Part shown: in pieces, positions 23,590-63,167 of the stretch
Layout: each line of letters begins with the position of its first letter
Numbering within the stretch: the stretch's first letter is position 1
NCBI RefSeq assembly: GCF_013315695.1
Contig: NZ_CP054353.1
Source of the DNA: Escherichia coli
GTDB lineage: Bacteria; Pseudomonadota; Gammaproteobacteria; Enterobacterales; Enterobacteriaceae
Direction: 5' to 3' (one strand)
DNA: 64,000 nucleotides
The notes under the pieces: model-generated
What the model was told of the DNA's origin: nothing
The model's input: the letters and a program-made list of their open reading frames with translations, nothing else
The model's database searches: none
Made by a program: the position numbers and the translations under genes

Positions 23590-26730
<3,141 letters not shown>

Positions 26731-26782
26731 TTATCCTTAAGAGTGTAATAATTTCCTCCAGCTATCGCACTGGAGGAAAAAA

Positions 26783-27100
26783 TCAGGCATGGAGCTCTTT
26801 TCTTAATGAAATGATTTCCCTGGCTAAATCCTGGCATAATATTGCATTCATCAAATGATCCTGTGCATGTACCAGAATGAGATTAACTTTTATTTTGCCA
26901 CAGCCTTCATCCTGACTAATTAACGCGGTCTGAATCTTATGCGCCTGAAGACAGGCGGATTCAGAACTGGCCATTAGCTGAGTTGCGCCCTGCCAGTCTT
27001 TTTGCCCGGCACAACGTATGGCTTCCATCGCATCAGAACGGGCCTGTCCTGCGTTGACCAGTAACTCCATAACAAGTTCTTCATCTGCAAACATCAACAT
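26783..27100 (-). CDS. PTS lactose/cellobiose-family EIIA
   Basis: 105-aa helical IIA resembling ChbA. Confidence 0.8.
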   Translation of the reverse strand: MLMFADEELVMELLVNAGQARSDAMEAIRCAGQKDWQGATQLMASSESACLQAHKIQTALISQDEGCGKIKVNLILVHAQDHLMNAILCQDLAREIISLRKELHA

Positions 27101-27121
27101 CTCCTTCCTGTGTAAATGGCA

Positions 27122-28444
27122 TTATCCGTTAGTTGTTAAGTTATTGACCTTGTTGGCGGCAATAACAAAAGGTAAATAGATCATTGTCGCCACACCTAAA
27201 CATAAAAAACCCACCAGTAACGCCAGCCAGTTTCCCCCGGTTCCGAGGAAAGCAATTAAAGGTCCGGGCGTAGTCCAGGGCACGGCATAAGCAACCGGTG
27301 GAATAATTTCCATCGAAACAAAGAAGTAACCAATGGCACAGTTAACAATAGGAACCATAATAAACGGCACCATCATGATGGGGTTAAGTACAATAGGAAG
27401 GCCGAACATTATCGGTTCATTGATATTGAAAATACCGGGGATAAATGACATTTTTGCCAGATCACGGTATTCCGCACGCTTAGAAGCGATAAAAATAGCC
27501 AACAATAACCCCAACGTCATACCTGAACCGCCGCAGTTGGCGAATGCATCATTAATAGAAGTCCAGGTAATCGGATATGGCGCGCCCCAGGTAGTGCCGT
27601 GTTGAGCGACCCAGGAGAGATTCTCCAGATTAGCCTCAGAAAAAACAGTTTCTCGAATTGCCGAGGTGGTATTAGGTCCGTGGATCCCCAGCACCCACAG
27701 GAAATTACCCACAGCCCCCAGGATAATTACCGCAAAGATATTCGTTCCCATATGTTTGAGCGGCGTCTGGATTAATGTGTAAATGAGGTCGTTTAATCCT
27801 GCCGGGGATATCAGTGTCAGGCAATAATTAAGTGCGGAAAAGAACACCATGACAAAAAATATTGGCAATAAAACTTTAAATGAACGCGCTACCGCAGGAG
27901 GTACAGCTGCCGGCATCGTGATGGTGATTTTGGGGTTTCGAGCTAAGCGACAAAATATTTCACTGGTGATCAGTGCAACGATAACAGCAACAAATAACCC
28001 CTGCGCGCCGAGATATTTGGTCGTCAGGAATGCTTGCCCATCTATCATCTGATATGGCGTATATACAATAAAAAATGCTCCTATTGCCGTTAATCCGCAT
28101 AAAAGATCATCTTGCTCATAGCTAATCGCCATATTCCTGGCGACCAGGAAAGCAATCATAATTGACATGATATTTACAGAACCATTCATTACCGGAGTAA
28201 AAATAGCTTGTGCTTTTTCAAGGTTGGGGAAAACGCTGTTCAGATGCAGCAGCCCGGCAATAAAGCCGTCGGGCGATAATATGGCAAAGTTAATTAATAT
28301 AATTAATGAGCTTGCCATGATAATTGGAAACGTAAAAACGAATCCATCTCTCACCGCTGCAACATGTTTTTGTGAGTTTAACTTGATAGCAACTGGAACA
28401 AGAAAACGTTCCATTCCACGTTCGAATGAGGCCATTAATCCCAT
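27122..28444 (-). CDS. PTS lactose/cellobiose-family EIIC permease
   Basis: 440-aa polytopic membrane protein resembling ChbC/CelB. Confidence 0.85.
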   Translation of the reverse strand: MGLMASFERGMERFLVPVAIKLNSQKHVAAVRDGFVFTFPIIMASSLIILINFAILSPDGFIAGLLHLNSVFPNLEKAQAIFTPVMNGSVNIMSIMIAFLVARNMAISYEQDDLLCGLTAIGAFFIVYTPYQMIDGQAFLTTKYLGAQGLFVAVIVALITSEIFCRLARNPKITITMPAAVPPAVARSFKVLLPIFFVMVFFSALNYCLTLISPAGLNDLIYTLIQTPLKHMGTNIFAVIILGAVGNFLWVLGIHGPNTTSAIRETVFSEANLENLSWVAQHGTTWGAPYPITWTSINDAFANCGGSGMTLGLLLAIFIASKRAEYRDLAKMSFIPGIFNINEPIMFGLPIVLNPIMMVPFIMVPIVNCAIGYFFVSMEIIPPVAYAVPWTTPGPLIAFLGTGGNWLALLVGFLCLGVATMIYLPFVIAANKVNNLTTNG

Positions 28445-28527
28445 TTTTTATACCTGTTGTTTTGGATATTTATACATCCCAATAAAGCATGTATGCCATA
28501 TCCATTTTATGATGAGTGAAAAGTTAG

Positions 28528-29722
<1,195 letters not shown>

Positions 29723-29756
29723 TTAGTTCAGGTAATAGTTTAATAAAATTAGATTC

Positions 29757-30068
29757 TTACTCTTGCAGTAGTTTCATCGCAAATTCAAGAACTGCCTGTC
29801 CGTTCATGCTGCCATAGTCTTTCATCTCGATAACAGCTACAGGCATTTTCCCCTGTGCAACAGCTTCAATCTCTGGTTTCTGAAAGCGAACTTGCGGGCC
29901 AAGTAAAACAACGTCAACTTCGTTATTTTTAATTTTCCCTTTAGCCTCTGCAATCGCCAATGCGGAAATATTAACTTCAAGTGAAATAGCGTTAGCATGA
30001 TCAATCATACGTTTAACCAGCATACTGGTTGACATGCCCGCAGCGCAAACTAACAATATCTTTTTCAT
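29757..30068 (-). CDS. PTS lactose/cellobiose-family EIIB
   Basis: 103 aa with N-terminal MKKILLVCAAGMSTS phosphocysteine motif (ChbB-like). Confidence 0.85.
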   Translation of the reverse strand: MKKILLVCAAGMSTSMLVKRMIDHANAISLEVNISALAIAEAKGKIKNNEVDVVLLGPQVRFQKPEIEAVAQGKMPVAVIEMKDYGSMNGQAVLEFAMKLLQE

Positions 30069-30266
30069 ATTTTCCCTTACTGGTATATAACAGATTACAT
30101 TGTGTAAATATCATATCCCGCAGTAGCTATACGTCCTGGTACATTGATCACAGTAATACAGCACTAAAGTTGTTCAACATCAGGGTGATAATTAAACGAC
30201 TCGGCCATAGGATAAACCAATCAGGACTCAACTCCTTGTTTTCAATGGCTCTTAAAAGGTGCAAAA

Positions 30267-30965
30267 GTGATTTTTCAAAAGATTGCCCGCTTACTTAAAT
30301 CCGAGATCAATGGCTATTCATGGCATGTTGGTGATTTGTTGCCGTCAGAAGCTGAACTCGCTGTTCGTTATAATGTTTCGCGTAATACCCTGCGTAAGGC
30401 ATTATCCTTGCTGGAAGGCGAAGGAATTATTCATAGAAAGCATGGTTCAGGAACATACATTCAAAAAAAGAATTTTGTTGCACACATTGATCACATGAAC
30501 AGCTTCAGTGAAATTGCGCATAAAAGCGGCAAGGAGGCAGGAAGTCAGATTATGAAATTTGAAGTGCAGGATGCTTCTCCCCCTATTGCGACTGAGCTGA
30601 ATTTAGTGACTGGTGAGCAGGTTTATTACATAAAGAGACTGCGATTCATTGAGGATAATGCAGCACAATTAGAAGAAACGTGGATGTCAGTGGCACGTTT
30701 TCCTGATTTAACCGTAGCACATATGCAAAAATCCAAATTTTCGTATATTGAGAACGAATGCGGGATCAAAATCATTGGCACCTTTGAAACTTTCTCCCCT
30801 ACTTTTCCTACCCCAGAAATCGCCAGTATTTTACGGATCAGCCCACGGGATCCCATACTTAAAATTCAGACCCAGGCTGTGGACAGTAACTCTATTCCGC
30901 TGGATTATTCGTTACTTTACAGCAATATTTTCGAGTTCCAGGTAAAGTACTTTTTCCCGCGATAA
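30267..30965 (+). CDS. GntR-family transcriptional regulator divergent from the PTS operon
   Basis: 232 aa; N-terminal GntR HTH (LPSEAELAVRYNVSRNTLRKAL) plus UTRA-like effector domain; start codon uncertain. Confidence 0.75.
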   Translation: MIFQKIARLLKSEINGYSWHVGDLLPSEAELAVRYNVSRNTLRKALSLLEGEGIIHRKHGSGTYIQKKNFVAHIDHMNSFSEIAHKSGKEAGSQIMKFEVQDASPPIATELNLVTGEQVYYIKRLRFIEDNAAQLEETWMSVARFPDLTVAHMQKSKFSYIENECGIKIIGTFETFSPTFPTPEIASILRISPRDPILKIQTQAVDSNSIPLDYSLLYSNIFEFQVKYFFPR

Positions 30966-32103: not shown

Positions 32104-33291
32104 ATGAACTTATCCCTACGACGCTCTACCAGCGCCCTTCTTGCCTCGTCGTTGTTATTAACCATCGGACGCGGCGCTACGCTGCCGTTTATGACCATTT
32201 ACTTGAGTCGCCAGTACAGCCTGAGTGTCGATCTAATCGGTTATGCGATGACAATTGCGCTCACTATTGGCGTCGTTTTTAGCCTCGGTTTTGGTATCCT
32301 GGCGGATAAGTTCGACAAGAAACGCTATATGTTACTGGCAATTACCGCCTTCGCCAGCGGTTTTATTGCCATTCCTTTAGTGAATAACGTGACGCTGGTG
32401 GTGCTCTTTTTTGCCCTTATTAACTGCGCCTATTCCGTCTTTGCTACCGTGTTGAAAGCCTGGTTTGCCGACAATCTTTCGTCCACCAGCAAAACGAAAA
32501 TCTTCTCAATCAACTACACCATGCTCAACATTGGCTGGACCATCGGTCCGCCGCTAGGCACGCTGTTGGTGATGCAGAGCATCAATCTGCCCTTCTGGCT
32601 GGCAGCTATCTGTTCCGCGTTTCCCATGCTTTTCATTCAAATTTGGGTAAAGCGCAGCGAGAAAATCATCGCTACGGAAACAGGCAGTGTCTGGTCGCCG
32701 AAAGTTTTATTACAAGATAAAGCACTGTTGTGGTTTACCTGCTCTGGCTTTCTGGCTTCTTTTGTTAGCGGCGCATTTGCTTCATGCATTTCACAATATG
32801 TGATGGTGATTGCTGATGGTGATTTTGCCGAAAAGGTGGTCGCGGTTGTTCTTCCGGTGAATGCTGCCATGGTGGTTACGTTGCAATATTCCGTGGGCCG
32901 CCGCCTTAACCCGGCTAACATCCGCGCGCTGATGACAGCAGGCACCCTCTGTTTCGTCATCGGGCTGGTCGGTTTTATTTTTTCCGGCAACAGCCTGCTA
33001 ATGTGGGGTATGTCAGCTGCGGTATTTACTGTCGGTGAAATCATTTATGCGCCGGGCGAGTATATGTTGATTGACCATATTGCACCGCCAGGAATGAAAG
33101 CCAGCTATTTTTCCGCTCAGTCTTTAGGCTGGCTTGGTGCGGCGATTAACCCATTAGTGAGTGGCATAGTGCTTACCAGTCTGCCGCCTTTCTCGCTGTT
33201 TATCATCTTAGCGTTGGTGATCGTTGCTGCGTGGGTGCTGATGTTAAAAGGAATTCGTGCAAGACCGTGGGGGCAGCCCGCGCTTTGTTGA
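32104..33291 (+). CDS. ydeE: MFS transporter YdeE
   Basis: 395-aa 12-TM MFS protein; synteny. Confidence 0.85.
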   Translation: MNLSLRRSTSALLASSLLLTIGRGATLPFMTIYLSRQYSLSVDLIGYAMTIALTIGVVFSLGFGILADKFDKKRYMLLAITAFASGFIAIPLVNNVTLVVLFFALINCAYSVFATVLKAWFADNLSSTSKTKIFSINYTMLNIGWTIGPPLGTLLVMQSINLPFWLAAICSAFPMLFIQIWVKRSEKIIATETGSVWSPKVLLQDKALLWFTCSGFLASFVSGAFASCISQYVMVIADGDFAEKVVAVVLPVNAAMVVTLQYSVGRRLNPANIRALMTAGTLCFVIGLVGFIFSGNSLLMWGMSAAVFTVGEIIYAPGEYMLIDHIAPPGMKASYFSAQSLGWLGAAINPLVSGIVLTSLPPFSLFIILALVIVAAWVLMLKGIRARPWGQPALC

Positions 33292-33417: not shown

Positions 33418-33513
33418 ATGCTGGGTAATATGAATGTTTTTATGGCCGTACTGGGAATAATTTTATTTTCTGGGTTTCTGGCCGCGTATTTCAGCCACAA
33501 ATGGGATGACTAA
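33418..33513 (+). CDS. mgtS: Small membrane protein MgtS (YneM), 31 aa
   Basis: ATG preceded by RBS (aacggaggcaaataATG); translation MLGNMNVFMAVLGIILFSGFLAAYFSHKWDD; below the 60-aa cutoff of the ORF track. Confidence 0.85.
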   Translation: MLGNMNVFMAVLGIILFSGFLAAYFSHKWDD

Positions 33514-33540
33514 TGAACGGAGATAATCCCTCACCTAACC

Positions 33541-33580
33541 GGCCCCTTGTTACAACTGTGTACAAGGGGCCTGATTTTTA
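33541..33580 (+). terminator. Rho-independent terminator after mgtS
   Basis: Stem ggccccttgt/acaaggggcc followed by tgattttta. Confidence 0.7.
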
Positions 33581-33588
33581 TGACGGCG

Positions 33589-33705
33589 AAAAAAAACCGC
33601 CAGTAAACCGGCGGTGAATGCTTGCATGGATAGATTTGTGTTTTGCTTTTACGCTAACAGGCATTTTCCTGCACTGATAACGGATCGTTGACACAGTAGC
33701 ATCAG
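33589..33705 (-). ncRNA. mgrR: Probable PhoP-dependent sRNA MgrR
   Basis: Minus-strand unit between mgtS and dgcZ: PhoP box upstream, then terminator stem (plus 33597-33614) and U8 (plus 33589-33596). 5' end not determined. Confidence 0.6.
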
Positions 33706-33720
33706 TTTTCTCAATGAATG

Positions 33721-33737
33721 TTAAACGGAGCTTAAAC
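33721..33737 (-). promoter_or_regulatory. PhoP box (GTTTAA-N5-GTTTAA) of the mgrR promoter
   Basis: Minus strand reads GTTTAAgctccGTTTAA, a perfect direct-repeat PhoP box; it overlaps the dgcZ stop codon. Confidence 0.65.
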
Positions 33738-34622
33738 TCGGTGAATCACGTTTTGTTCGTCAATAAACATGCAGCGATTCCTTCCGGTTTGCTTACCCTC
33801 ATACATTGCCCGGTCCGCTCTTCCAATGACCACATCCAGAGGCTCTTCAGGAAATGCGCGACTCACACCTGCTGTCACGGTAATGTTGATATGCCCTTCA
33901 GAATGTGTGATGGCATGGTTATCGACTAACTGGCAAATTCTGATACCTGCACGACATGCTTCTTCATCATTAGCCGCTTTGACAATAATGATAAATTCTT
34001 CGCCACCGTAGCGATAAACCGTTTCGTAATCGCGCGTCCAACTGGCTAAGTAAGTTGCCAGGGTGCGTAATACTACATCGCCGATTAAATGCCCGTAGGT
34101 ATCATTAACCAATTTAAATCGGTCAATATCCAACAACATTAAATAAAGATTCAGAGGATCAGCATTGCGTAACTGATGATCGAAGGATTCATCAAGAACC
34201 CGACGACCCGGCAATCCCGTCAGAACATCCATATTGCTACGGATCGTCAGCAAATAAATTTTGTAATCGGTTAATGCCGCAGTAAAAGAAAGCAACCCTT
34301 CCTGAAAAGCGTCGAAATGCGCGTCCTGCCAGTGATTTTCAACAATAGCCAGCATTAATTCCCGACCACAGTTATGCATATGTTGATGGGCAGAATCCAT
34401 TAGCCGAACGTAAGGTAATTCATCGTTATCGAGTGGCCCCAGATGATCAATCCACCGACCAAACTGGCACAGTCCATAAGAATGGTTATCCGTTATTTCT
34501 GGCTTACTGGCATCTCTCGCGACCACGCTGTGAAACATACTTACCAGCCACTGGTAGTGGGCATCGATAGCCTTATTGAGATTTAACAAGATGGCATCAA
34601 TTTCCGTTGTCTTCTTGATCAT
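33732..34622 (-). CDS. dgcZ: Zinc-sensing diguanylate cyclase DgcZ (YdeH)
   Basis: CZB domain plus GGDEF domain (GGEEF); likely start at MIKKTTEIDAIL. Confidence 0.9.
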   Translation of the reverse strand: MIKKTTEIDAILLNLNKAIDAHYQWLVSMFHSVVARDASKPEITDNHSYGLCQFGRWIDHLGPLDNDELPYVRLMDSAHQHMHNCGRELMLAIVENHWQDAHFDAFQEGLLSFTAALTDYKIYLLTIRSNMDVLTGLPGRRVLDESFDHQLRNADPLNLYLMLLDIDRFKLVNDTYGHLIGDVVLRTLATYLASWTRDYETVYRYGGEEFIIIVKAANDEEACRAGIRICQLVDNHAITHSEGHINITVTAGVSRAFPEEPLDVVIGRADRAMYEGKQTGRNRCMFIDEQNVIHRV

Positions 34623-34876
34623 TGCCACTCCTTTTTCACAGTTCCTTGTGCGCGCTATTCTAACGGGAGAAAAGCAAAATTACGTCAATATTTTCATAGA
34701 AATCCGAAGTTATGAGCCATCTCTGAGATAACATTGTGATTTAAAACAAAATCAGCAGATAAAAAAGTGTTTAATTCTATAAATTAACTCTGCATTATCG
34801 CAATTAAAAGGATGACAAATAGCATAACCCAATACCCTAATGGCCCAGTAGTTCAGGCCATCAGGCTAATTTATTT

Positions 34877-35269
34877 TTATTTCTGCAAATGAGTGACCCG
34901 AACGACGGCCGGCGCGCTTTTCTTATCCAGACTGCCGCTAATGTTGATCATCTGGTCCGGCTGAACTTCTCGTCCATCAAAGACGGCCGCAGGAATAACA
35001 ACATTAATTTCACCGCTCTTATCGCGAAAAACGTAACGGTCCTCTCCTTTGTGAGAAATCAAATTACCGCGTAGTGAAACCGAAGCGCCATCGTGCATGG
35101 TTTTTGCGAAATCAACGGTCATTTTTTTTGCATCGTCGGTTCCGCGATAGCCATCTTCTATTGCATGAGGCGGCGGTGGCGCTGCATCCTGTTTTAAACC
35201 GCCCGGGTCATCTGCCAACGCATAAGGCATGACAAGAAAACTTGCTAATACAATGGCCTGAAATTTCAT
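34877..35269 (-). CDS. ydeI: YdeI, periplasmic OB-fold (BOF/YgiW-family) protein
   Basis: 130 aa with signal peptide; synteny. Confidence 0.85.
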
Positions 35270-35634
35270 ACTGACTCCTTAATTGCGTTTGGTTTGACTT
35301 ATTAAGTCTGGTTGCTATTTTTATAATTGCCAAATAAGATTACTGCCAATTGTTATAAGGCATTTAAAATCAGGCAACTAGCTGTCAAATATTCAGAGAA
35401 TTTAACTCACTAAAGTTAAGAAGAAGATTAAAGAGTCTTAAACATATTTCAGAATAATCAGATTTATAAATTTGAAAATTATTATAACGGAAGGGTATAC
35501 AAAAAAAGTAATTTTGCTGGCGACTGCGAAACGGCATTCGCATTAGCGGTGAAGTTTGCCCTCGCCCAGCTGCTGCAATTACTGCTATAACGAGGCTGGT
35601 CTGGCGATAAATCCAGGCCAGCCATTGGTTGTGT

Positions 35635-37680
35635 TTATACGTTCAAGCCACGATGTTGCAGCATCGGCATAATCTGAGGTGCCTTACCGCGCCATTGTCG
35701 ATACAGGCGTTCCAGATCCTCGCTGTTACCTCTGGAAAGGATCGCCTCGCGAAAACGCAGCCCATTTTCACGCGTTAATCCGCCCTGCTCAACAAACCAC
35801 TGATAACCATCATCGGCCAACATTTGCGTCCACAGATAAGCGTAATAACCCGCGGCATATCCGCCACCAAAAATATGGGCGAAATAACTGCTGCGATAGC
35901 GTGGCGGTATAGCAGGAAGATCCATATTTTCCGCCACCAGCGCCCGCAATTCGAAATCATCGACATCCTGCATTGCTTCGTTTTCTTCCAGGCAATGCCA
36001 GCGCATATCGAGAAGTGCGGCGCTAAGCAGTTCGCTCATCTCATACCCTTTATTGAACAGGCTGGCATTACGCATTTTCTGTTGCAGTTCGTCAGGCATT
36101 GCTGCCCCGCTCTGATAATGCCGGGCGTAGCGAGCGAATACCTGCGGATGCGTTGCCCAGTGTTCGTTGATTTGCGACGGAAATTCGACAAAATCACGCG
36201 GCGTGTTGGTGCCGGAAAGCGTGGCATAACGCTGGCGGGCAAAAAGGCCGTGCAGCGTATGACCAAATTCATGGAATAAGGTTATTACATCATCCCAGAG
36301 TAACAACGCAGGCTCCCCAGCAGCGGGTTTCTGATAATTGCAGACGTTATAAATTACCGGGTGCGTTTCATTCAGCGTTGATTGCTCAACAAAATTGCCC
36401 ATCCATGCGCCGCCGCTTTTTGAATCACGGGCGAAGAAATCACCGTAAAATAACGCCAGCCCCACACCATTATGATCAAAAATTTCCCACACACGAACGT
36501 CAGGATGGTAGACAGGAATATCAAAACGTTCGACAAACTTAATACCGAAGAGCTGATTCGCAGTCCAGAATACGCCTTCATTCAACACCGTGTTTAATTC
36601 GAAATAAGGCTTGAGCTGCGCTTCATCGAGATCGAATTTATCACGTCTTACCTGCTCGGCATAAAATGCCCAGTCCCACGGCTGCGCGCTAAACCCGCCC
36701 TGCTGCTTATCGATAACCGCCTGTATGGAGGCTAATTCATCGCTCGCACGTTGACGCGCCGCTGGAACAATTTCCCGCATAAAGTTGAGCGCTGCTTCTG
36801 GCGTTTTTGCCATCTGATCGGCGATTTTCCATGCGGCATAATGAGGAAAACCAAGCAGTTTCGCCTGCTGCGCGCGGATCTCCACCAGACGTTGAATGAT
36901 AGCGCGGGTATCATTGGCATCATTTTTTTCCGCTCGCATCCAGCCCGCAGTAAACAGTTTTTCACGCGTCGCACGATCGCGCATTTCGGCAAGCGCCGGT
37001 TGTTGGGTGGTATTCAGCAGCGGAATCAGCCATTTGTTATCCAGACCTTTCTCGCGAGCCGCCTCTGCCGCCAGCACAATCTCTTGCTCACTCATTCCTG
37101 CCAGCTGCGCGATATCGTTCACAACCAGACCGCCGGATTTATTTGCTGCCAGTAACCGCTGGTTAAACTGGCTGGTCAGGGTCGCAGCTTCTGTATTCAG
37201 TACTTTTAATTTTGCTTTATCAGCTTGCGCAAGTTTGGCTCCGGCAAGGACAAAACGTTGATGAATCACCTCCACCAGGCGGATGGATTCACTATCAAGC
37301 CCCAGGGATTCACGGCGCTGCCAGACAGCATCTACCCGCGCGAATAATTCACCGTTCAGATAGATATCATTAGCCAGTTCCGCCAGTTCAGCGGAAAACT
37401 GTTCATCAAGACGCTGTAATTCATCATTGGTATGCGCCGCAGTCATCGCAAAAAAGACGCTGGTAACGCGGGTAAGTAATTCTCCGCTTTGTTCCAGTGC
37501 CAGAATAGTATTGTTGAAATCAGGCGTTTGCGAGTTAAGCGCGATGGCAGTAATTTCTGCCCGCTTTTGCAGCATTCCCTCATCGAATGCCGGGCGATAG
37601 TGATGATTGGCAATTTGATCAAAATGGGGAGCCAGATACGGCAGTGTGCTTTGCACAAGGAAAGGATTCATTGTTGTCAT
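35635..37680 (-). CDS. dcp: Dipeptidyl carboxypeptidase II (peptidase M3)
   Basis: HEFGH zinc motif; likely start at MTTMNPFLV with RBS ggagaag (ORF track extends 66 nt upstream). Confidence 0.9.
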   Translation of the reverse strand: MTTMNPFLVQSTLPYLAPHFDQIANHHYRPAFDEGMLQKRAEITAIALNSQTPDFNNTILALEQSGELLTRVTSVFFAMTAAHTNDELQRLDEQFSAELAELANDIYLNGELFARVDAVWQRRESLGLDSESIRLVEVIHQRFVLAGAKLAQADKAKLKVLNTEAATLTSQFNQRLLAANKSGGLVVNDIAQLAGMSEQEIVLAAEAAREKGLDNKWLIPLLNTTQQPALAEMRDRATREKLFTAGWMRAEKNDANDTRAIIQRLVEIRAQQAKLLGFPHYAAWKIADQMAKTPEAALNFMREIVPAARQRASDELASIQAVIDKQQGGFSAQPWDWAFYAEQVRRDKFDLDEAQLKPYFELNTVLNEGVFWTANQLFGIKFVERFDIPVYHPDVRVWEIFDHNGVGLALFYGDFFARDSKSGGAWMGNFVEQSTLNETHPVIYNVCNYQKPAAGEPALLLWDDVITLFHEFGHTLHGLFARQRYATLSGTNTPRDFVEFPSQINEHWATHPQVFARYARHYQSGAAMPDELQQKMRNASLFNKGYEMSELLSAALLDMRWHCLEENEAMQDVDDFELRALVAENMDLPAIPPRYRSSYFAHIFGGGYAAGYYAYLWTQMLADDGYQWFVEQGGLTRENGLRFREAILSRGNSEDLERLYRQWRGKAPQIMPMLQHRGLNV

Positions 37681-45044: not shown

Positions 45045-45749
45045 TTATCCGATATCGCTTCGGGAAACGGATAACAACTTTAATTCTGACTCAAGTTCAT
45101 CAACTCTTTCAGTCAGCTTCTGGATATGGTGAATCAGTGGAACAACCAGACGTTCGTACATTACACCTTCGGCAACAAGGCCATTGCTGGAAATGGTTTC
45201 CGGTGCATCATCTTCGTTGGCTGGTCGCCAGTGAACAAACTGAGGGGCAATTTCTCCTACTTCCTCGGCAATCAATCCATAGAATCCCCAGTCACGCCTG
45301 TCATTTTCGCATTGCGACCTGTACCACACAGGGCGCATCCTGAAAATGAGATCGGCGTGCTCTGAATCTATCGTCTCTACTGAATGTTTATAGCGGATAG
45401 ACGATGTTGACCGCAGCACAGACGAAATTGCAGGGTCAGGATTAAGATAAAGATTTGCCGCCGCTGTAGTTGTGCCCAATCCCCATAAATAAAACGCTTC
45501 ACGGCCAGTCAGCGGGTAAAAATCTCCGCCATAACGACCACTTTCCAGATCGTTCACTTCCACTTTGTTTTTCAGCTTATTATCAACTTCAGTTTTTGTG
45601 TATCTGGTGCTGATATCCTGCTTTGCACTGGCCATATCAGTCTGAAGCGTTGATACTTTTCCGTTAATAGAGGAAATATCTTCCTTTGCTTTACTAACAT
45701 CTCCCTTCAGCGTGGTGATGTCTCCCGGAATTACTGTTGATGTAGCCAT
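45045..45749 (-). CDS. Tail fibre/tailspike-like protein with C-terminal intramolecular-chaperone (peptidase S74-like) domain, 234 aa
   Basis: N-terminal coiled-coil-like region; C-terminal TSSIRYKHSVETID...GLIAEEVGEIAPQFV...YERLVVPLIHHIQKLTERVDELESEL resembles the autoproteolytic chaperone of endosialidase-type fibres. Motif-level recognition only. Confidence 0.5.
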   Translation of the reverse strand: MATSTVIPGDITTLKGDVSKAKEDISSINGKVSTLQTDMASAKQDISTRYTKTEVDNKLKNKVEVNDLESGRYGGDFYPLTGREAFYLWGLGTTTAAANLYLNPDPAISSVLRSTSSIRYKHSVETIDSEHADLIFRMRPVWYRSQCENDRRDWGFYGLIAEEVGEIAPQFVHWRPANEDDAPETISSNGLVAEGVMYERLVVPLIHHIQKLTERVDELESELKLLSVSRSDIG

Positions 45750-45758
45750 TTCTCTACC

Positions 45759-46040
45759 TCACATCCAGCCACGAAGTTGATGCTCAACAGCAACCGCGTA
45801 TTCATCGAATAATGACGATATTTGCGTATCCTTAATAATGCGCACGTTTACAAAATATCCATCTTCCTTAACACATACCGGTTCGCCATCTTCAGTCAGC
45901 TCTCCGGTTTCTTTGTACACGTTACCTATCACATCAATCAGAATATCATCCTGCATCGACTCGTCATTATAATAGCCAATACTTCCCATAAAGGCCGAAA
46001 AGTCGGCCCTGTCGGCAAATTTGAGTGTTAAATCTTTCAT
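45759..46040 (-). CDS. Hypothetical acidic protein, 93 aa, translationally coupled to the native stf stop
   Basis: ATG overlaps the TAA of the reconstructed stf reading frame (TAATG); no recognisable domain. Confidence 0.45.
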   Translation of the reverse strand: MKDLTLKFADRADFSAFMGSIGYYNDESMQDDILIDVIGNVYKETGELTEDGEPVCVKEDGYFVNVRIIKDTQISSLFDEYAVAVEHQLRGWM

Positions 46041-46246
46041 TAGATTGACTCCCCCATCTGAGCATCAGTCAATGCCTTGTGCCAAATACGCAGATTTCGA
46101 ACGTGTCCAAATAGGTGACGGTTGCCGGATGATGATTGACCACCAATATTAATGAAGCCTCCTGTATATTTGTGTTTTTTATAAGGAGAAAGGTGATGCT
46201 GCCAACTTACTGATTTAGTGTATGATGGTGTTTTTGAGGTGCTCCA

Positions 46247-46522
46247 GTGGCTTCTGTTTCTATCAGCTGTCCCTCCTGTTCAGCTACTGACGGGGTGGTG
46301 CGTAACGGCAAAAGCACCGCCGGACATCAGCGCTATCTCTGCTCTCACTGCCGTAAAACATGGCAACTGCAGTTCACTTACACCGCTTCTCAACCCGGTA
46401 CGCACCAGAAAATCATTGATATGGCCATGAATGGCGTTGGATGCCGGGCAACAGCCCGCATTATGGGCGTTGGCCTCAACACGATTTTACGTCACTTAAA
46501 AAACTCAGGCCGCAGTCGGTAA
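46247..46522 (+). CDS. insA: IS1 InsA
   Basis: Identical 91-aa InsA translation to copy A. Confidence 0.95.
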
Positions 46523-46944
46523 CCTCGCGCATACAGCCGGGCAGTGACGTCATCGTCTGCGCGGAAATGGACGAACAGTGGGGCTATGTCGGGGCTAAAT
46601 CGCGCCAGCGCTGGCTGTTTTACGCGTATGACAGGCTCCGGAAGACGGTTGTTGCGCACGTATTCGGTGAACGCACTATGGCGACGCTGGGGCGTCTTAT
46701 GAGCCTGCTGTCACCCTTTGACGTGGTGATATGGATGACGGATGGCTGGCCGCTGTATGAATCCCGCCTGAAGGGAAAGCTGCACGTAATCAGCAAGCGA
46801 TATACGCAGCGAATTGAGCGGCATAACCTGAATCTGAGGCAGCACCTGGCACGGCTGGGACGGAAGTCGCTGTCGTTCTCAAAATCGGTGGAGCTGCATG
46901 ACAAAGTCATCGGGCATTATCTGAACATAAAACACTATCAATAA
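46441..46944 (+). CDS. insB: IS1 InsB
   Basis: 167-aa InsB; one residue differs from copy A (G versus E near the C-terminus). Confidence 0.95.
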
Positions 46945-48379
46945 GTTGGAGTCATTACCAAGGAGAAACTACCTTAGCACCAATATTACCGTTAACCACA
47001 ACACACAATTCTCGACTTTCTGTGAATCTAAAGCCGATAATGCTTTTTCTCTCTGGTCGTTCTATAACGCTTTTATATTCTATTTTAGTGCCTTTACCAT
47101 TTGTAATGATTGCGCGTGCTCCCAAAGATGTATACCCCAAATACATATAACTTTCATCTGCAATTTCAGTTGTATCTCCCGTAGTGGAAATATTAAGAAT
47201 ACGTGCGCTACCTTCTTTGTTTGGCGATTCATCCCAATTGGTATTAACTTCTGCTAATGAACTAATAGCGGGATTGCACCAATTTAGAGAAATGGGGACC
47301 GTTACAATATCGCTGGCGCGTGTTACAGGGGATGCGCCTGTTATAATAAACGATGAAGCGCATGCCCCACCTTCAACTTGAGGGGTCGCAATATAAATAT
47401 AATCATCCGCGCCAGTGCCCACTCCTTTTGCCGGGGCATACTGAACCATTCCACCTATCATATTTTCTGTATCAAGTGCCTTAATTGTCGCCTCAAAAAA
47501 GATCCATTTGCTTGCTTCATCTTTAACAGCCCTTGCAGTAATGCGATTAGCGGCACCACCCGTCTTATCAATAGATAAATCTGTCGTATTTAAGTAAGCG
47601 TCACCTAAGAATGTGTAGGTAGAACCATCATAGTTTTCAAATCGTAATCGGCATCTTAAATTTGGAGTGCCACTTTGCACCCTGCATGATATGGTTACAT
47701 ACTTTTCTCCGCCTGTTACATCAAAACCTTTACTGCCGGAAACGGTTACTATGTTAATCGCTGAAATTTGCCCTACCATTTCTGGTTTTAATGTAAATTT
47801 TGCGTACTGGAATCCGAAATCATCTACACCTGATGCACTTAAGATCATATTTGACGACTTGTTCCATTTAGTCGGATTTGTTGAATTGATTAGCAGGTTA
47901 GTTCTTTGCCCCTCAATAAGCAGGCCATCACGTTCAAATCGTGGCTCGTCAATGGCAGCCTCTGTCAGCACACCAGATTTATTAATGTAAGTTGCTTTCG
48001 ATGCGCGTTTAAACTTTACAATCTTGTCGCCAGGCATTGTTATTTCATCGTCGCCAATAACAATTTTTTTATATGATGGCGAAAAGCCCGTAATCATATC
48101 CAGTGAATCATTAAACGGTATCCACACATCGGGCAACGGCTGCAAAACTTGTTTATACGGCTCCGCTGCCTGGCTTGCATACTCTCTGGCTGCGTCTTCA
48201 CTTGCTTTAGCTGCTGTCTGGCTTGCTGCCGATGCTTGCGCCGAGTTCGCCGCCGCAGTCTCGCTCGCCTTTGCGTTGGTTTCACTGGTTTTTGCTGCTT
48301 TTTGACTGTTAGCTGATGCAGTGGCAGAAGCAGCCGCCGCGCTTGCAGAACTGGCTGCGGCACTCTCGCTTTGGGCCGC

Positions 48380-48700
48380 TGCATCCTGACTGCTTTTCGC
48401 CGCAGTTTCACTGGCTTTGGCATTCGTTTCGCTGGTCTTCGCTGCCGTCTGGCTGGACTTTGCGTTAGTTTCACTCGTCTTCGCAGCTTTCTGGCTGTTA
48501 GCCGCAGCAGTTGCTGATCCAGCTGCTGAAGTCGCAGAACCGGCTGCCGCGCTCTCGCTTTGGGCTGCTGCAACCTGGCTGTTTTTTGCCGCAGTTTCAC
48601 TGGCTTTGGCATTCGTTTCGCTGGTTTTCGCTGCCGTCTGGCTGGACTTTGCGTTGGTTTCGCTCGTCTTTGCGGCTGTCTCGCTATTTTTCGCGTTGGT
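48380..48700 (-). repeat. Tandem 189-bp (63-codon) direct repeats inside stf
   Basis: gcagtttcactggctttggcattcgtttcgctgg... recurs at 48402 and 48591 (offset 189 bp); a more diverged copy lies upstream. Confidence 0.8.
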
Positions 48701-49229
48701 TTCTGATTTTTTGGCTGCTGTCGCGGAGTTTGCCGATGCAGTCTTTGAGGTCGCTGCCGCCTGTGCACTATTAGCTGCATTCGTTTCTGAGGTTTTCGCC
48801 GCGTTCTTCGATGATGCCGCTGCAGTTTCGGATTTCTTTGCCGCCGCTGCGCTCTGAGAGGCGGCTTCAGCGTTGCGTGCCGCTTCTTCCACCATTTCCT
48901 CAAAACGACGCAATGCCTCCGGCATGACATCATCTTCCGTCATGGCACCGAGAAAATCATTCAGCGTACCTGGTCTGGAACCTTCATAGACGGTAATGGT
49001 TCCGGCATGTGAAGGCGGAAAACCTTCAACCAGCAGGGTGACGCTGTACTGGCCATACTCAACATCCATGCTGTAACGCCCGGCTTCATCCGGATTTTCA
49101 GAGGCCACTGTGTTGACCAGTACCGTGGTGCTGTTACGCTTTGCCTTCAGTTGAATAGTGCAGTTCTGTATTGGTTTTCCCGCACCATCTTTCAGCACAC
49201 CTGAGATTTTTACTGCTGCCATATCCACT

Positions 49230-49262
49230 CCACAAAAAAGCCCGCCTGAACCGGCGGGCTGT
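49230..49262 (-). terminator. Rho-independent terminator downstream of lom
   Basis: Stem agcccgcc/ggcgggct; minus strand continues tttttgtgg. Confidence 0.7.
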
Positions 49263-49286
49263 CATAACACTGTGTTACCTGGCTAA

Positions 49287-49886
49287 TCAGAATTTATAAC
49301 CGACACCAACGATGAAACCGTCAGTGCGCCAGTCGCCACTGCCGGAACCTTCATAAGCAATATCAATGGCCACGGATTCGGTCGGGTTAAACTGCACGCC
49401 AGCCCCCCATGCCAGAGACGTGTCGCTGTGGCGACCGTCATCACTTCCGGTCAGCACATCGTGCGTTTTCCCCTTGTTGTCAGTTACGCGGATATAATCT
49501 CCGGAGAAAGTCGAAACACGGCTGTAAGCCATACCCGCCATCGCATACGCGCTGAACCATTCATTCACGCGCACAGACGGCCCCACCATCACGCTGAACC
49601 AGCGGTTACGCACGGAATCTTCATGCCAGCGGGTATCGCTGTAACGGGTAAGCTGGCGATTCTTGTCTCCTGCATAGCTGAATGACGTCACCATCCCCAG
49701 TGTGTCCGTAAACTCATAACGGTATTTCACGTTAATCCCGTTCAGATCATCGCTGCCGGGAACGTTCGTCGAGGCATGAAGATACCCCGCGCTCAGCGTG
49801 GACTGATGTTCAGATGCCCATGCAGGCGCACCGGATACGGCCAGACAAATGGCTGCGGAAAAAATGGCGGCACAAACTTTACGCAT
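49287..49886 (-). CDS. lom: Lom-like outer membrane protein (Ail/PagC/OmpX family)
   Basis: 199-aa beta-barrel with signal peptide; position between J and stf as in lambda. Confidence 0.9.
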
Positions 49887-49953
49887 AATTACCTCTCGCT
49901 TTTCTGCAATAAAAAAGGCGCCATTTCTGGCGCCCGTATATGGGTTATAAAAT

Positions 49954-50793
49954 TCAGCTGATACTGATGCCTGCGGTGGCTTTCTTCATCACCACAACCA
50001 GCAGATCGCTGATACTTGCTGTGGGATACCAGTCATTTACCAGCCATGCTGACACCGAAAACTCCAGCGTCATGTGACCGTGACCGGCAGGCATATCAAT
50101 AACGCCACTGTAAATCAGCGTATTATCCAGCGCGGTACGGTTATAAATTTCAGCACCGTTTTTCCGCACTATCAGACGGCATGAGGAGTAAATATCAGTA
50201 TGCTCTCTCTCATGTTTAGCGCCGCTGAATGCCACCGCCGGAATAACAATCTGCCGGTCAAACGGCTGATCGTCATAAACCCTGACGGTAATGGTCCCTG
50301 ATGGCCACCGTTCCGGTGCACGGGAGTCCCGGGGGAAAGCTTTGCCCACTGTTTTAACGAGATCGCCTTCAATCTGGTTCGCGGACAGTTTTCCCAGAAC
50401 CCGACAGTTCTCGTTAATCGTGACGTTGTTGAGCGTCCCGGAGTTCGCATTCACGTTACCACTGATATCCGCATTTTTAGCAGTCAGCTTTCCGTCCGGT
50501 GTCAGGGAAAATGCCGGTGGATTTCCACCACTGGTAATGGTGGGGGCCGTCAGGCGCTTCAGGAACACGTCGTTCATGAATATCTGGTTGCCCTGCGCCA
50601 CAAACATCGGCGTTTCATTCCCGTTTGCCGGGTCAATAAACGCGATACGATTGGCGGCAACCAGAAACTGACTCAGTTTGCCTTCCTCTGTATCCTCCAT
50701 GCTGAGGCCAATACCCGCGACATAATGTTTGCCGTCTTTGGTCTGCTCAATTTTGACAGCCCACATGGCATTCCATTTATCGTTGGCATCCTT
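49954..50793 (-). pseudogene. J: C-terminal 280 codons of tail tip protein J, N-terminal part deleted
   Basis: Translation ends like lambda J (...[36 protein letters not shown]); upstream boundary is the IS3-family terminus at 50794; no ATG start. Confidence 0.85.
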
Positions 50794-50801
50794 TGTAGTG
50801 G

Positions 50802-54127
<3,326 letters not shown>

Positions 54128-54142
54128 CGCTGACTCTCCGGA

Positions 54143-54883
54143 TTAACTGGCGGTGACGGTGATTTCTGCAACCGCAGCAAACTCACCATTACCGGATACA
54201 ACCGGAATGTTGACCTTGCCTGCAGCAACGCCGTTCACGGTGATGGTCATACCACTGACCGACACGGTGGCTTTTGTTTTATCCGCTGACACCGCACGGA
54301 AGCTCTTGTCGGTTGCGCCTTCCGGCTGGAAGGCCACGGTCAGCGTGGTGCTCTGCCCTTTCACTACGGAAGCACTGGCTGGCGTTACCGTCATGCCGGT
54401 GGCCGCTGTTACCGTGCTGCGATCTTCTGCCATCGACGGGCGTCCCACATTGGTGACCTTCACCGTGCGGGTGATCACTTCCTTCGCCGTCACCGCTTTA
54501 CCGATACTGCTGACCCAGCCACGGAACACATCGACCGTGCCGTTCGGGAAGCGGATTTTATAGGCACGGGTATCACCTTCATTAAACCACGCCAGCAGCG
54601 CCTGCTGCCCCTGCTCTCCGGGCATCCACGCCAGCGTGAAGCTGGTATCTCCGGCTGATTTCTGCCCCTGCCCGGTCGCAGTCCAGTCCGCATCCTCATC
54701 ATCGAGATAACTGTCGTCATAGGACTCAGCGGTCAGTTCGCCGGGCGTCAGGTCTTTAACTTTTGCCAGACGCGACCAGTCAACGTCTGAAAGCGGGTTC
54801 GCATAAGGGTCACCGCTCCCCTTATAAACCCACAGGGTGGTCCCGGCACCTTTCACCGGCATTACAGGATTTGGTACAGGCAT
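54143..54883 (-). CDS. V: Major tail protein gpV
   Basis: [45 protein letters not shown]... recognised as lambda V; C-terminal Ig-like domain. Confidence 0.9.
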
Positions 54884-54890
54884 AGCGTCC

Positions 54891-55286
54891 TCACATTTCA
54901 TAGGTAATGACATAAGTCAGATCGGCTGAACTCCACAGGCCCGCATCATCGTCGCGCCGGTAGTCATAGCCACTGGCCACCATACTGGTGATCAAATCTG
55001 ACAGTGCCGGGATATCGCTCATCACCGGATAAATCCGGGACTCCATCCACGAATCCAGCTCTGAATCCGGCACCTGAGCAGGCAGGAAAACTTCAATATG
55101 CAGCTCCGCCTGCCAGGTATCGCTGTCCAGCTCTTCGCCCGTGTATTCAGCGCCGGTGAGATAAACGGCAATTGCCGGAAAATCTTCCTCATCAAAAACA
55201 GCGGGGCGACCATCAAAAAGCGTCGCCCCGGTGTCATGCTTCTCCAGTGCATCCAGTACGGCTGCACGGAGTTCAGTATGTTTCAT
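54891..55286 (-). CDS. U: Tail terminator gpU
   Basis: 131 aa, [43 protein letters not shown]... recognised as lambda U. Confidence 0.9.
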
Positions 55287-55861
55287 CGCTTTATTACCAT
55301 TCTCAGTTGATGCTGCAGCGCATAGCCCAGCTCTTTCGGAAGACGCTCACGCCGTATCCGTTCAATATTCTGTTTAAACGCCGTGGTCAGTGGCACCGCC
55401 ATCGGGATTTTCACCACATCAATGGGGTAACGGTTTTTCCCGGCCACACGCTGCATGACATGCCACCGGCCATTTTTCAGTTGCTGAATAAACGCGCCGG
55501 GAATACGACGGTTTCCCACCACAAGCACGCTGCCGCCACCTTTCAGGGATGAACGCTGCCCCTTTTTACGACGCCTGCGTCGGGACAGGACAACCCGCGC
55601 ATTACCCAGCTTGATTACGGGCAAATCCCCCCGGTTAACCTTGATTCTGGCCTGCGGATTTTTAACCGTGGCCCTTTTCAGCCTGGCCCTTTCCTTTACC
55701 AGTTTCCGGCGTACCTTTGTCTCACGGGCAACCTGTGACGCCGACTGCGATATCGCGGATGAAGCAACGCGGTTAATGGCCATTGCGGCGGCACCAGGCA
55801 CCGCCGTTTTGCTGATACGGCTGAGGTTTTCAACGGCCTGCTCAAGACCCTGTATGGCCAT
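55283..55861 (-). CDS. Z: Tail completion protein gpZ
   Basis: MAIQGLEQAVENLSRISKTAVPGAAAMAINRVASS... recognised as lambda Z; start taken as the ATG at 55861 in the second copy of a 43-bp duplication. Confidence 0.85.
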   Translation of the reverse strand: MAIQGLEQAVENLSRISKTAVPGAAAMAINRVASSAISQSASQVARETKVRRKLVKERARLKRATVKNPQARIKVNRGDLPVIKLGNARVVLSRRRRRKKGQRSSLKGGGSVLVVGNRRIPGAFIQQLKNGRWHVMQRVAGKNRYPIDVVKIPMAVPLTTAFKQNIERIRRERLPKELGYALQHQLRMVIKR

Positions 55862-55914
55862 ACATCCCCCTTTCAACGGCCTGCTCAAGACCTTTTATGG
55901 CCATACATCCCCCT
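55829..55914 (-). repeat. 43-bp tandem duplication spanning the gpZ RBS and start codon
   Basis: 55829-55871 and 55872-55914 match at 41 of 43 positions; each copy carries aggggg-ATG-tATGGCCATA. Confidence 0.85.
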
Positions 55915-55915
55915 T

Positions 55916-56269
55916 TCAGCGGCGACGGTTAACGGCAGGCGGAACGCCACGCCCAAGCCAGAGATGACAGCTTCCGCCATCATCCGGCGATACCCGGTCT
56001 ATCCAGAAGTTTTCCTCACCGATGGTCAGCGTGTCTCCACGCCGCAGCTGCCGCACCTCATCAGTCCGGACAAACAGGGACGGGCTGGAGCCTTCAACGC
56101 GCACGCCCTGTCCGGCATAGCTGATATTTTCAGGGTCATCAAAAACACCACGTATTACTGCGCCGGACTGCTCACCGGATGTCATGGTGGCTGACGTTCC
56201 CATGTACCCGCGTATCGTTTCATCGGCGCGGGCAATGGCAGCATCGAACAGGTTATCGAAATCAGCCAC
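55916..56269 (-). CDS. FII: Head-tail joining protein gpFII
   Basis: 117 aa, MADFDNLFDAAIARADETIRGYMGTSATMTSGEQSG... recognised as lambda FII. Confidence 0.9.
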   Translation of the reverse strand: MADFDNLFDAAIARADETIRGYMGTSATMTSGEQSGAVIRGVFDDPENISYAGQGVRVEGSSPSLFVRTDEVRQLRRGDTLTIGEENFWIDRVSPDDGGSCHLWLGRGVPPAVNRRR

Positions 56270-56280
56270 AGCGCCTCCCG

Positions 56281-56676
56281 TTATTGCATTCTGGCCAGGC
56301 CACGTTCTGTCATTTCAGCTGCCACACCGGCAGAGACACGGAACGCCGTTCCCGGCAGCACAAATGCCACAGCCTCATCCCGCGTGGCGTGAAGTGCATC
56401 AGTATGCAGCGTCACCAGTGCCACAACCGTGACCAGATCAGCCGTATCAGTCACGGTATCCGGCTGCGCTGATACAACCTCATTTTCATGTCCGGTCAGC
56501 GCATTTTCCGGGCTGACAGATGTGTCCTGACCGGCAGCGTCATCCGTGTCATCAAGCTCCTCTTCCAGCTCTGCCACACGGAGCACCAGTTCTTCTTTCG
56601 TCCCCGTCAGGCTGACATCACGGTTCAGTTGCTCACCCAGCACCTGAAGACGGGCAATCAGTTCATCTTTCGTCAT
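56281..56676 (-). CDS. FI: DNA-packaging protein gpFI
   Basis: MTKDELIARLQVLGEQLNRDVSLTGTKEEL... recognised as lambda FI; ORF track extends further upstream. Confidence 0.85.
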   Translation of the reverse strand: MTKDELIARLQVLGEQLNRDVSLTGTKEELVLRVAELEEELDDTDDAAGQDTSVSPENALTGHENEVVSAQPDTVTDTADLVTVVALVTLHTDALHATRDEAVAFVLPGTAFRVSAGVAAEMTERGLARMQ

Positions 56677-56717
56677 GGACTCCTCCACAAAGAGAAAATG
56701 GCCCCGAAGGGCCATGA

Positions 56718-57743
56718 TTACGCCAGTTGTACGGACACGAACGCATCAGGGTCAGCCAGCAGCATCAGCGGTGCTGACTGAATCATGGTGAACTCACGCG
56801 CCGGATCGCCGGTGGTCACCCAGTTTTTCGGGTAGCGGGCAGAAGCGTTAATACCTTCGCGCTGTGCGTCCGCATCCTGAATGCAGCCATAGGTGCGCAG
56901 ACCGCGTGCCTGAGTGTTCCCCAGCACCATCGTGTTGTCCGGAAGGAAGTTCTTTTTGACGTCGTTTTCCACGTACTGTCCGGAATACACGACGATCGCC
57001 GTATCGCCATACATCCCCTTATAGGACACCGCTTCGCCCAGGTCTTTTACCGCTGTCTCCAGCTCGGAATGAGAGCCGCGACGGGTATCCAGCTTCTCCC
57101 TGACGGCTTTGAAGGAACGGAACAGCGCCCAGCCTTTCGGATCAAACACGATGATATTCACCACGCCGCTGGCGTTCAGCGCATAGGCTTCGATATCGTC
57201 GGTCGGGTCATACGTGGACTTGTCACGCTTGCTCCACTCCGTACCACCGGACTGTGTGATGTTGTTCGCCGCACTGCGGCCCATATCCACTTCAACCGGA
57301 TCGAAGGCTTCACCGGTCATGGTGTATTTGCCCTTAAGCACGGCAGAAACTGCCTGCATCTCTTCGACCTGAGCAATGGCCAGCTCTTCGTCTCGCATGT
57401 TCTGCATGATGATGCGACGGCGGCGGTAAGCCGGGTCCGCCAGATTCTGCGGATCTTCATCCGGCAGGCGACGCAGGGTCATCTGCGGATTCACCTCATG
57501 CTTCGGCTTGACATATCCCGGTGTAAATTCAGAGGTGGAGCCGCCACGGGAGCGGATAACCTCACCGGAAACAATCGGCGAAACGTACAGCGCCATGTTT
57601 ACCAGTCCCGGAATTTGTGAGAGATAGACTTTCTCCGTGGTGAAGGGATAGCTCTCACGGAAAAAGAGACGCAGAAACAGCGGATCAAACTTAAATTTCT
57701 GCTCATTTGCCGCCAGCAGCTGGGCGGTTGTGTACATCGACAT
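56718..57743 (-). CDS. E: Major capsid protein gpE
   Basis: MSMYTTAQLLAANEQKFKFDPLFLRLFFRESYPFTTEKVYLSQIPGLVNMALYVSP... recognised as lambda E. Confidence 0.95.
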   Translation of the reverse strand: MSMYTTAQLLAANEQKFKFDPLFLRLFFRESYPFTTEKVYLSQIPGLVNMALYVSPIVSGEVIRSRGGSTSEFTPGYVKPKHEVNPQMTLRRLPDEDPQNLADPAYRRRRIIMQNMRDEELAIAQVEEMQAVSAVLKGKYTMTGEAFDPVEVDMGRSAANNITQSGGTEWSKRDKSTYDPTDDIEAYALNASGVVNIIVFDPKGWALFRSFKAVREKLDTRRGSHSELETAVKDLGEAVSYKGMYGDTAIVVYSGQYVENDVKKNFLPDNTMVLGNTQARGLRTYGCIQDADAQREGINASARYPKNWVTTGDPAREFTMIQSAPLMLLADPDAFVSVQLA

Positions 57744-57798
57744 AAAAAAATCCCGTAAAAAAAGCCGCACAGGCGGCCTTTAGTGATGAAGGGTAAAG

Positions 57799-58131
57799 TT
57801 AAACGATGCTGATTGCCGTTCCGGCAAACGCGGTCCGTTTTTTCGTCTCGTCGCTGGCAGCCTCCGGCCAGAGCACATCCTCATAACGGAACGTGCCGGA
57901 CTTGTAGAACGTCAGCGTGGTGCTGGTCTGGTCAGCTGCAACAGCCAGAATGCCAACGGCAGCACCGTCGGTGGTGCCATCCCACGCAACCAGCTTACGG
58001 GTGGCGGTGTCAAGCATCAGCGGAGTCATTGCAGGCGCTTTCGCACTCAATCCGCCGGGCGCGGTTGCGGTATGAGCCGGGTCACTGTTGCCCAGCGGCT
58101 GGTAATGGGTAAAGGTTTCTTTGCTCGTCAT
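57799..58131 (-). CDS. D: Capsid decoration protein gpD
   Basis: [41 protein letters not shown]... recognised as lambda D. Confidence 0.95.
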
Positions 58132-58140
58132 AAACATCCC

Positions 58141-59440
58141 TTACACTGGTGTGTTCAGCAAATCGTTAACGGCATCAGATGCCGGGTTACCTGCAGCCAG
58201 TGGTGCCGGTGCACCCTGCATCAGACGATCCAGCGCAGTGTCACTGCGCGCCTGTGCACTCTGTGGTGCTGCGGCCAGAATGCGGCGGGCCGTTTCCACG
58301 GTCATTCCGGGGGTTTCTGCCAGCACGCGCGCCTGTTCTTCGCGTCCGTGAGCCTCCTCACAGTTGAGGATCCCCATAATGCGGCTGTTTTCTGCCGCAA
58401 CCGCTGCGGTGATCTGCGTGTTCACGTCCGGCTGCGCCGCGCTGGCGTTTTCGCCCTCCGTCGCTTGCACCACGTCAGTAACGTCAGCCTGCGAAGCGGT
58501 GGCTGAAACAGTTGTTGATTGAGTCTCTTTGGTCATTCGCCCTCCTGAGAGACGGGATTTACGTGCATCCAGTGCATCACGCATGACGGTGATCGCATCG
58601 GTGCTGTTAACAAGTTCATCAGCCAGTCCGGCATCAATGGCCTCCTGACCGCTGTACACTGCAGCCTCGGTATCCAGCACAGCCTGCACGGACAGGCCGG
58701 TATATGCCGACACCTTCTGCGCAAACATCCGGCGGGTTGCATCCATCCGGGACTGCAGTGTCTCCCGGACGTCATCCGGAAGATGGCTGTAGGGGTTGCC
58801 ATCCACCTTATGGCTGCCGCTGTAAATCAGCGTGATTTCCACGCCCTGTTTCTCCAGCGCAGCACCGTAATTACTGTGAGCCATCATGACGCCGATGGAG
58901 CCTGTCCGGGCGGTCTGCGTGACCAGACGCCGGGAGGCGGCACTGGCAAGCAGCTGACCTGCGCTGCAGTTCATGTCATTGGCCAGCGCCCATACCGGCT
59001 TTATGTCACGCACACGGGCGATGATGTCAGCGCAGTCAAATGCCCCTGCCACCATCCCGCCTGGCGTATCCATATCGAGCAGAATGCCGTCCACCATCGG
59101 GTCGCTGGCAGCCTGTTGCAGACGGGCGATAATGCCGTTGTAACCGGTCATCCCCGAATACGGCTGCAGCGCCCGCGTCCGGCTGACCAGCGTGCCGGAC
59201 ACCGGCAGCACGGCGATGCCGTTCATGACCTGATAACTGCGGGCCTGCCGTGGTCCGTCATCATCAACGGATAACGCCAGCGCCGCGGGTGCCTCTCCGG
59301 CAGTCAGGCTGTCGCCGGATACCGCATCCGTCAGGCGGCTGATCCCAAGCTGGCCTGCAAGCGCACAAAAGAAAACCCGCGCATAGGCGGGTTCAAGCAT
59401 CAGCGGCTCATTAAAGGCCATACTGGTAATATGCGGGAGA

Positions 59441-59460
<20 letters not shown>
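58141..59460 (-). CDS. C: Capsid maturation protease gpC (scaffold Nu3 nested in frame at its 3' end)
   Basis: S49-family ClpP-like domain; start set at the GTG aligned with lambda C (VTAELRNLPHI), overlapping the B stop by 20 nt. Confidence 0.85.

Positions 59461-63141
<3,681 letters not shown>

Positions 63142-63167
<26 letters not shown>

Follow-up and report, generated by a model that had tools for sequence, protein, structure and literature searches.

In Escherichia coli MG1655 a gene, ydeJ, stands between ydeI and dcp, and the lack of any such gene in the corresponding interval of the DNA analysed here raises the question of whether ydeJ was lost or was never there, how widely the short interval is shared, and whether the sequence that remains has a role of its own. 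The window, meaning the whole 64,000-nucleotide stretch under analysis, is E. coli chromosome, as judged from its open reading frame (ORF) listing and from comparison with annotated genomes. The gap between ydeI and dcp extends from 35270 to 35634 (365 bp), with the dcp stop codon at 35635 defining its right edge. Its G+C content is 36.2%, compared with 49.3% for the entire window, and it contains no ORF of 60 aa or more, the longest being 52, 47, 41 and 38 aa. The length, base composition and ORF list agree with the initial annotation, which had described an AT-rich 365-bp spacer without an ORF of at least 60 aa. The gene order around the gap, based on the ORF listing, annotated genomes and Rfam, is as follows.

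32104-33291, plus strand: ydeE, followed by mgtS and mgtT
33507-33720, minus strand: MgrR
about 33732-34622, minus strand: dgcZ
34877-35269, minus strand: ydeI, intact, encoding a 130-aa YdeI/BOF-family periplasmic OB-fold stress protein; left neighbour of the gap and counterpart of MG1655 b1536
35270-35634: the gap
35635-37680, minus strand: dcp, intact, encoding peptidyl-dipeptidase Dcp; right neighbour of the gap and counterpart of MG1655 b1538, followed by ydfG and rspR

The same arrangement is found in strain GF131, which is 100% identical to the window over the 1.5 kb from 34600 to 36100 and in which the PGAP annotation places ydeI and dcp (2046 bp) at the equivalent positions.

Several other features of the window are worth recording. 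MgrR, an Hfq-binding sRNA, is represented by a full-length match to the Rfam family STnc560 (33507-33720, minus strand; 280 bits, E = 4e-65) and just as in MG1655, lies on the strand opposite mgtT and overlaps its 3′ end. An island at about 23600-30950 separates marB from eamA, two genes that lie only about 30 bp apart in MG1655, which does not carry the island; by collinearity with GF131 its content includes a GntR regulator, PTS IIB, IIC and IIA components, a carbohydrate porin and a 6-phospho-beta-glucosidase. An IS5 copy (28528-29722) with a 326-aa InsH transposase (28674-29654, minus strand) sits between the PTS IIB (29757-30068, minus strand) and IIC (27122-28444, minus strand) genes of a cellobiose-type PTS operon, and probably uncouples PTS IIB from the downstream genes. 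IS5 is absent from this site in GF131 and likewise in MSB1_4I and NZ_OZ547117.1, the latter two showing 100% identity apart from the insertion. An IS1 copy (459-1226; InsA at 896-1171 and InsB at 474-977, both on the minus strand) lies between lsrK and an autotransporter gene and is absent from that position in GF131. Beyond ydfK and pinQ, from about 45050 to 64000, the window carries tail and head genes of a lambdoid prophage at the site that Qin occupies in K-12; collinearity with GF131 is only partial here, with 94-98% identity and gaps at about 45-48.7 kb and 50.6-53.3 kb.

In the MG1655 record, ydeJ (b1537; 519 bp, 172 aa, plus strand, 'PF02464 family protein YdeJ') lies between ydeI (b1536) and dcp (b1538), in an interval of 837 bp. 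The order ydeI-ydeJ-dcp, which the initial annotation had expected for MG1655, is thus borne out by the record, and the short spacer of the window is not shared by that strain. Aligning the window jointly with MG1655 and N64, in combination with exact string matching, locates the breakpoints. The 475 bp absent from the window correspond to MG1655 1,624,737-1,625,211 and comprise 36 bp upstream of the ydeJ GTG start and, from the start onwards, 439 nt of coding sequence (146 full codons). What survives, besides intact ydeI and dcp, is about 239 bp of the spacer, the end of ydeJ with its stop codon, and a hairpin, distributed over the gap as follows.

35270-35510, unstranded: retained divergent spacer of ydeI and ydeJ, AT-rich, about 239 of the 275 bp of MG1655
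35510/35511: deletion junction, ...ACAAAAAAAGTA joined to ATTTTGCTGGCG..., from the three-way alignment and string matching
35511-35590, plus strand: 3′ remnant of ydeJ, consisting of the last 26 codons and the TAA stop (35588-35590), with no start codon
35594-35623, unstranded: G+C-rich hairpin with an 11-pair stem, in which 8 pairs are G-C, and a loop of 8, from a scan for terminator-like structures; also present in MG1655 and N64

At the junction, neither the alignment nor string matching detects inserted or foreign DNA, and microhomology is at most 1 bp. Nor does this point show any remnant of an IS, a terminal inverted repeat or a target-site duplication, and both flanks run straight into homologous sequence. 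The flanks are about 98% identical to MG1655, which is ordinary between-lineage divergence, and in the alignment the retained spacer differs from its MG1655 counterpart only by SNPs, one 3-bp indel and one 1-bp indel.

The identity of the fragment to the right of the junction is clear from its reading frame. The plus-strand frame ending at 35590 reads ...NFAGDCETAFALAVKFALAQLLQLLL up to its stop codon, and the C-terminus of MG1655 YdeJ reads ...HFAGDCETVLALAVRFALAQLLQLLL up to the same stop. At the nucleotide level the remnant matches the 3′ end of b1537 at 76 of 80 positions (95%), in frame and collinear. The CinA-like tail without a start codon that had been noticed in this frame therefore matches the C-terminus of MG1655 YdeJ. 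Three of the four differences are non-synonymous, a proportion compatible with relaxed constraint, in numbers too small to carry weight. In MG1655 YdeJ the Pfam CinA domain (PF02464) covers residues 19-171 and profile positions 3-155 of 155 (E = 9e-48), while the 26-aa fragment alone matches no Pfam family. The window contains no full CinA domain (about 155 positions) provided with a start codon, and a functional gene of the CinA/PncC family (NF002972) is absent from it. Compared with b1537, the window has the same site between ydeI and dcp, and a like stop codon and hairpin, but it has lost 439 of the gene's 519 nt, together with the start codon and the ribosome-binding region. Since the start codon and these 439 nt are gone, no YdeJ protein can be made. 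The hairpin separates ydeJ from dcp, which is convergent with it; it has been kept in the window and probably terminates transcription in both directions.

The remnant is already recognized by automated annotation. PGAP calls a pseudogene of 81 bp at the equivalent of window positions 35510-35590 ('incomplete; partial in the middle of a contig; missing N-terminus'), and annotates such a remnant in GF131, 20Ec-P-124, SMS-3-5 and N64. These four genomes share the exact 24-mer spanning the junction. In SMS-3-5 (ECSMS35_RS29765), GF131 (ACHP5R_RS11250) and 20Ec-P-124 (CPZ02_RS29450) the 81-bp remnant and the junction are as in the window and both ydeI and dcp are intact, so that these strains carry the same allele; only SNP-level differences, at 98-100% identity, distinguish them from the window. 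The loss of ydeJ is an ordinary difference in gene content that is already annotated in RefSeq. A full-text search of the literature found no paper describing the deletion seen here, among results partly dominated by papers that do not mention ydeJ.

The distribution of the deletion was examined in 5426 complete E. coli genomes by means of three sequence searches. The locus is present in 5418 of the 5426, and at least 80% of window positions 34600-36100 is covered in 4297. The 475-bp segment missing from the window was found in 3618 genomes, and a 120-bp query across the deletion junction found the junction in 1800, of which 1795 have at least 80% query coverage. Because 3618 and 1800 sum to 5418, the number of all genomes with the locus, the two states are mutually exclusive and account for every one of them. 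The ydeJ deletion is a common, lineage-wide polymorphism; its carriers make up about 33% of complete genomes, and the reference strain SMS-3-5 is one of them. The proposal in the initial annotation of a strain-specific deletion holds with respect to the deletion itself, given the 475 bp missing by alignment to MG1655, and fails with respect to strain specificity, given a junction found in 1800 of 5426 complete genomes. Over the 8.3 kb of backbone surrounding the gap, identity to MSB1_4I and NZ_OZ547117.1 is 100%, and the nearest well-known references to this backbone are SMS-3-5 and a strain named 'ST648', both of which carry the allele of the window and probably belong to phylogroup F.

A second deletion allele has been built on the first. 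Strain N64 has the same ydeJ junction and, in addition, a nested deletion of 505 bp that corresponds to window positions 34966-35470 (1778-1986 in the N64 segment that was compared). The second junction, ...GGTCCGGCTGAA joined to TTTGAAAATT..., has a 2-bp microhomology (AA). This deletion takes the first 101 codons of ydeI, that is its 5′ two thirds, together with 201 bp of the spacer, and leaves a 90-bp 3′ remnant of ydeI. Carriers include N64, which is a CSF isolate, O4:H5 CU532-9 and SF-468. In the window the second junction is absent, and the 130-codon ydeI and all of 34966-35470 are present. The double-deletion allele thus has a ydeJ junction and remnant identical to those of the window and a truncation of ydeI that is its own, and the shared first junction implies that it was derived from the window-type allele. 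The window-type allele, with ydeI intact and ydeJ deleted, accounts for approximately 690 genomes (13%) and the double-deletion allele for approximately 1100 (about 20%), both being figures obtained by subtraction, as pieces of the 120-bp double-deletion junction query lying no more than 560 bp apart are joined, with the result that both alleles score 100% coverage.

Taken together, these results make it almost certain that the gap was produced by an old deletion of 475 bp, shared by descent or recombination, that abolished YdeJ and left ydeI and dcp intact. Since the CinA domain spans residues 19-171 of the MG1655 protein and the tail in the window is in frame with the K-12 stop codon and terminator, the fragment is the residue of a formerly complete single-domain gene. 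A shared origin is supported by the allele counts (3618, 1800 and 5418) and by the identical junction 24-mer in four independent genomes. The deletion deprived the 172-codon ydeJ of 439 nt, its start codon and its ribosome-binding region, and the resulting allele has since reached much of the species, whether by inheritance or by recombination. The nested 505-bp deletion came later, in about 20% of genomes, taking with it the 5′ two thirds of ydeI.

The event behind the first deletion was probably a single illegitimate recombination or replication-slippage event, as suggested by a junction without IS sequence or inserted DNA and with no more than 1 bp of microhomology; a junction of this kind, with 1 bp of microhomology, does not reveal the molecular mechanism itself. 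Deletion by a mobile element, either as an IS-mediated adjacent deletion or through IS excision, is very unlikely. Active-looking copies of IS1 and IS5 are present elsewhere in the window, and IS-adjacent deletions may leave no trace after loss of the element, both of which count in favour of such an origin, but the junction has none of the IS remnants, inverted repeats or target-site duplications that would point to one and its flanks are directly homologous.

The deletion left most of the regulatory sequence between ydeI and ydeJ in place. The spacer at 35270-35510 should hold the promoter region of ydeI, and probably also the former ydeJ promoter. In K-12, RcdA is reported to bind the spacer between ydeI and ydeJ and to activate ydeI under some conditions (PMC3535384). 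The RcdA box TTGTNNACA has only one match with one mismatch in the retained spacer of the window, and one in MG1655, which is too little to be informative. As most of the spacer is retained, regulation of ydeI is probably unaffected. Two sigma-70-like matches occur in the gap, compared with 1.4 expected by chance, which is no more than in shuffled sequence. At E ≤ 1, Rfam identifies no family in the gap at 35270-35634, and the only credible match between 33000 and 38000 is that of STnc560/MgrR at 33507-33720.

The lost protein belongs to the same CinA/PncC family as PncC (YgaD), an active NMN deamidase encoded at a different locus (TIGR00199 and NF002975 matches). E. coli YdeJ has been described as a non-functional, catalytically inactive single-domain paralog of PncC with substitutions in the catalytic and phosphate-binding blocks (PMC3855486). 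The Salmonella ydeJ promoter is active and responds to supercoiling, and deletion of the gene raises negative supercoiling there, for which reason the product, a supercoiling modulator, has been renamed RdsA (PMC7387798). The naming of YdeJ in databases is uneven. The MG1655 record uses 'PF02464 family protein', while PGAP and the NCBIfam equivalog NF002972 name the protein '2-oxo-tetronate isomerase', an activity (EC 5.3.1.35) that has been assigned to b2739, a protein unrelated to YdeJ (PMC12506659). The isomerase label may be a misannotation now propagated across thousands of genomes.

The Salmonella observations bear on the possible consequences of the deletion. There is a slim chance that the loss of YdeJ/RdsA, followed by that of ydeI in about 20% of genomes, is non-neutral and shifts supercoiling homeostasis or envelope-stress behaviour in the lineages concerned, or that the combination of promoter, tail and terminator constitutes a new short transcript. 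It is highly unlikely that the remodelled spacer now yields a novel short transcript or micro-ORF that is functional in its own right, or that the loss is adaptive in extraintestinal lineages through supercoiling control. The retention of the upstream spacer and the terminator hairpin, the frequency of the allele (33%), and the supercoiling phenotype of the Salmonella deletion together with its active, supercoiling-sensitive promoter (PMC7387798) could be read in this way. Against these stand the absence of an Rfam match, the chance level of the promoter-like matches, the lack of any ORF longer than 52 aa or of one that looks conserved, and the mostly non-synonymous differences of the remnant from K-12. 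Furthermore, approximately 1100 genomes have gone on to lose 40 bp of the retained spacer together with ydeI, which points to decay of the region.

The opposite polarity, in which K-12-like strains acquired ydeJ by insertion into an ancestrally short spacer, accounts for the existence of two allelic states but is exceedingly improbable. The final 26 codons of ydeJ survive in the window, in register and followed by the stop codon and the terminator, and because the CinA domain reaches residue 171, an insertion would have required an in-frame fusion to a pre-existing domain end. Nothing resembling a mobile element flanks the 475 bp of MG1655, and ydeJ is present in Salmonella (PMC7387798). The polarity is based on the remnant itself and on this published Salmonella gene. 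Scans of species-representative genomes for the ydeJ tail, with a degenerate 38-mer that matches the window locally and with a plain 22-mer that is invariant in the window, MG1655 and N64, returned 0 loci, a result that is not taken as absence; the collection should include an E. coli genome, in which a SNP may have altered the 22-mer, or the site may have escaped the scan. The probability that an error of assembly or sequencing in this genome created the gap is practically nil, as the same junction recurs in 1800 independently assembled complete genomes and the surrounding 8.3 kb is 100% identical in MSB1_4I and NZ_OZ547117.1.

An old deletion of ydeJ, carried by a third of complete genomes, shows that the gene is dispensable in E. 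coli. This dispensability bears on the function of an inactive PncC paralog, and strains with the double deletion are also without the YdeI stress protein. The nested deletions of 475 bp and then 505 bp are clean markers, each probably of single origin, that order the three allelic states of ydeI-ydeJ, and both could serve as PCR or in silico markers of lineage. As the locus is polymorphic, results obtained with ydeI and ydeJ in K-12 should be transferred to other strains with caution.
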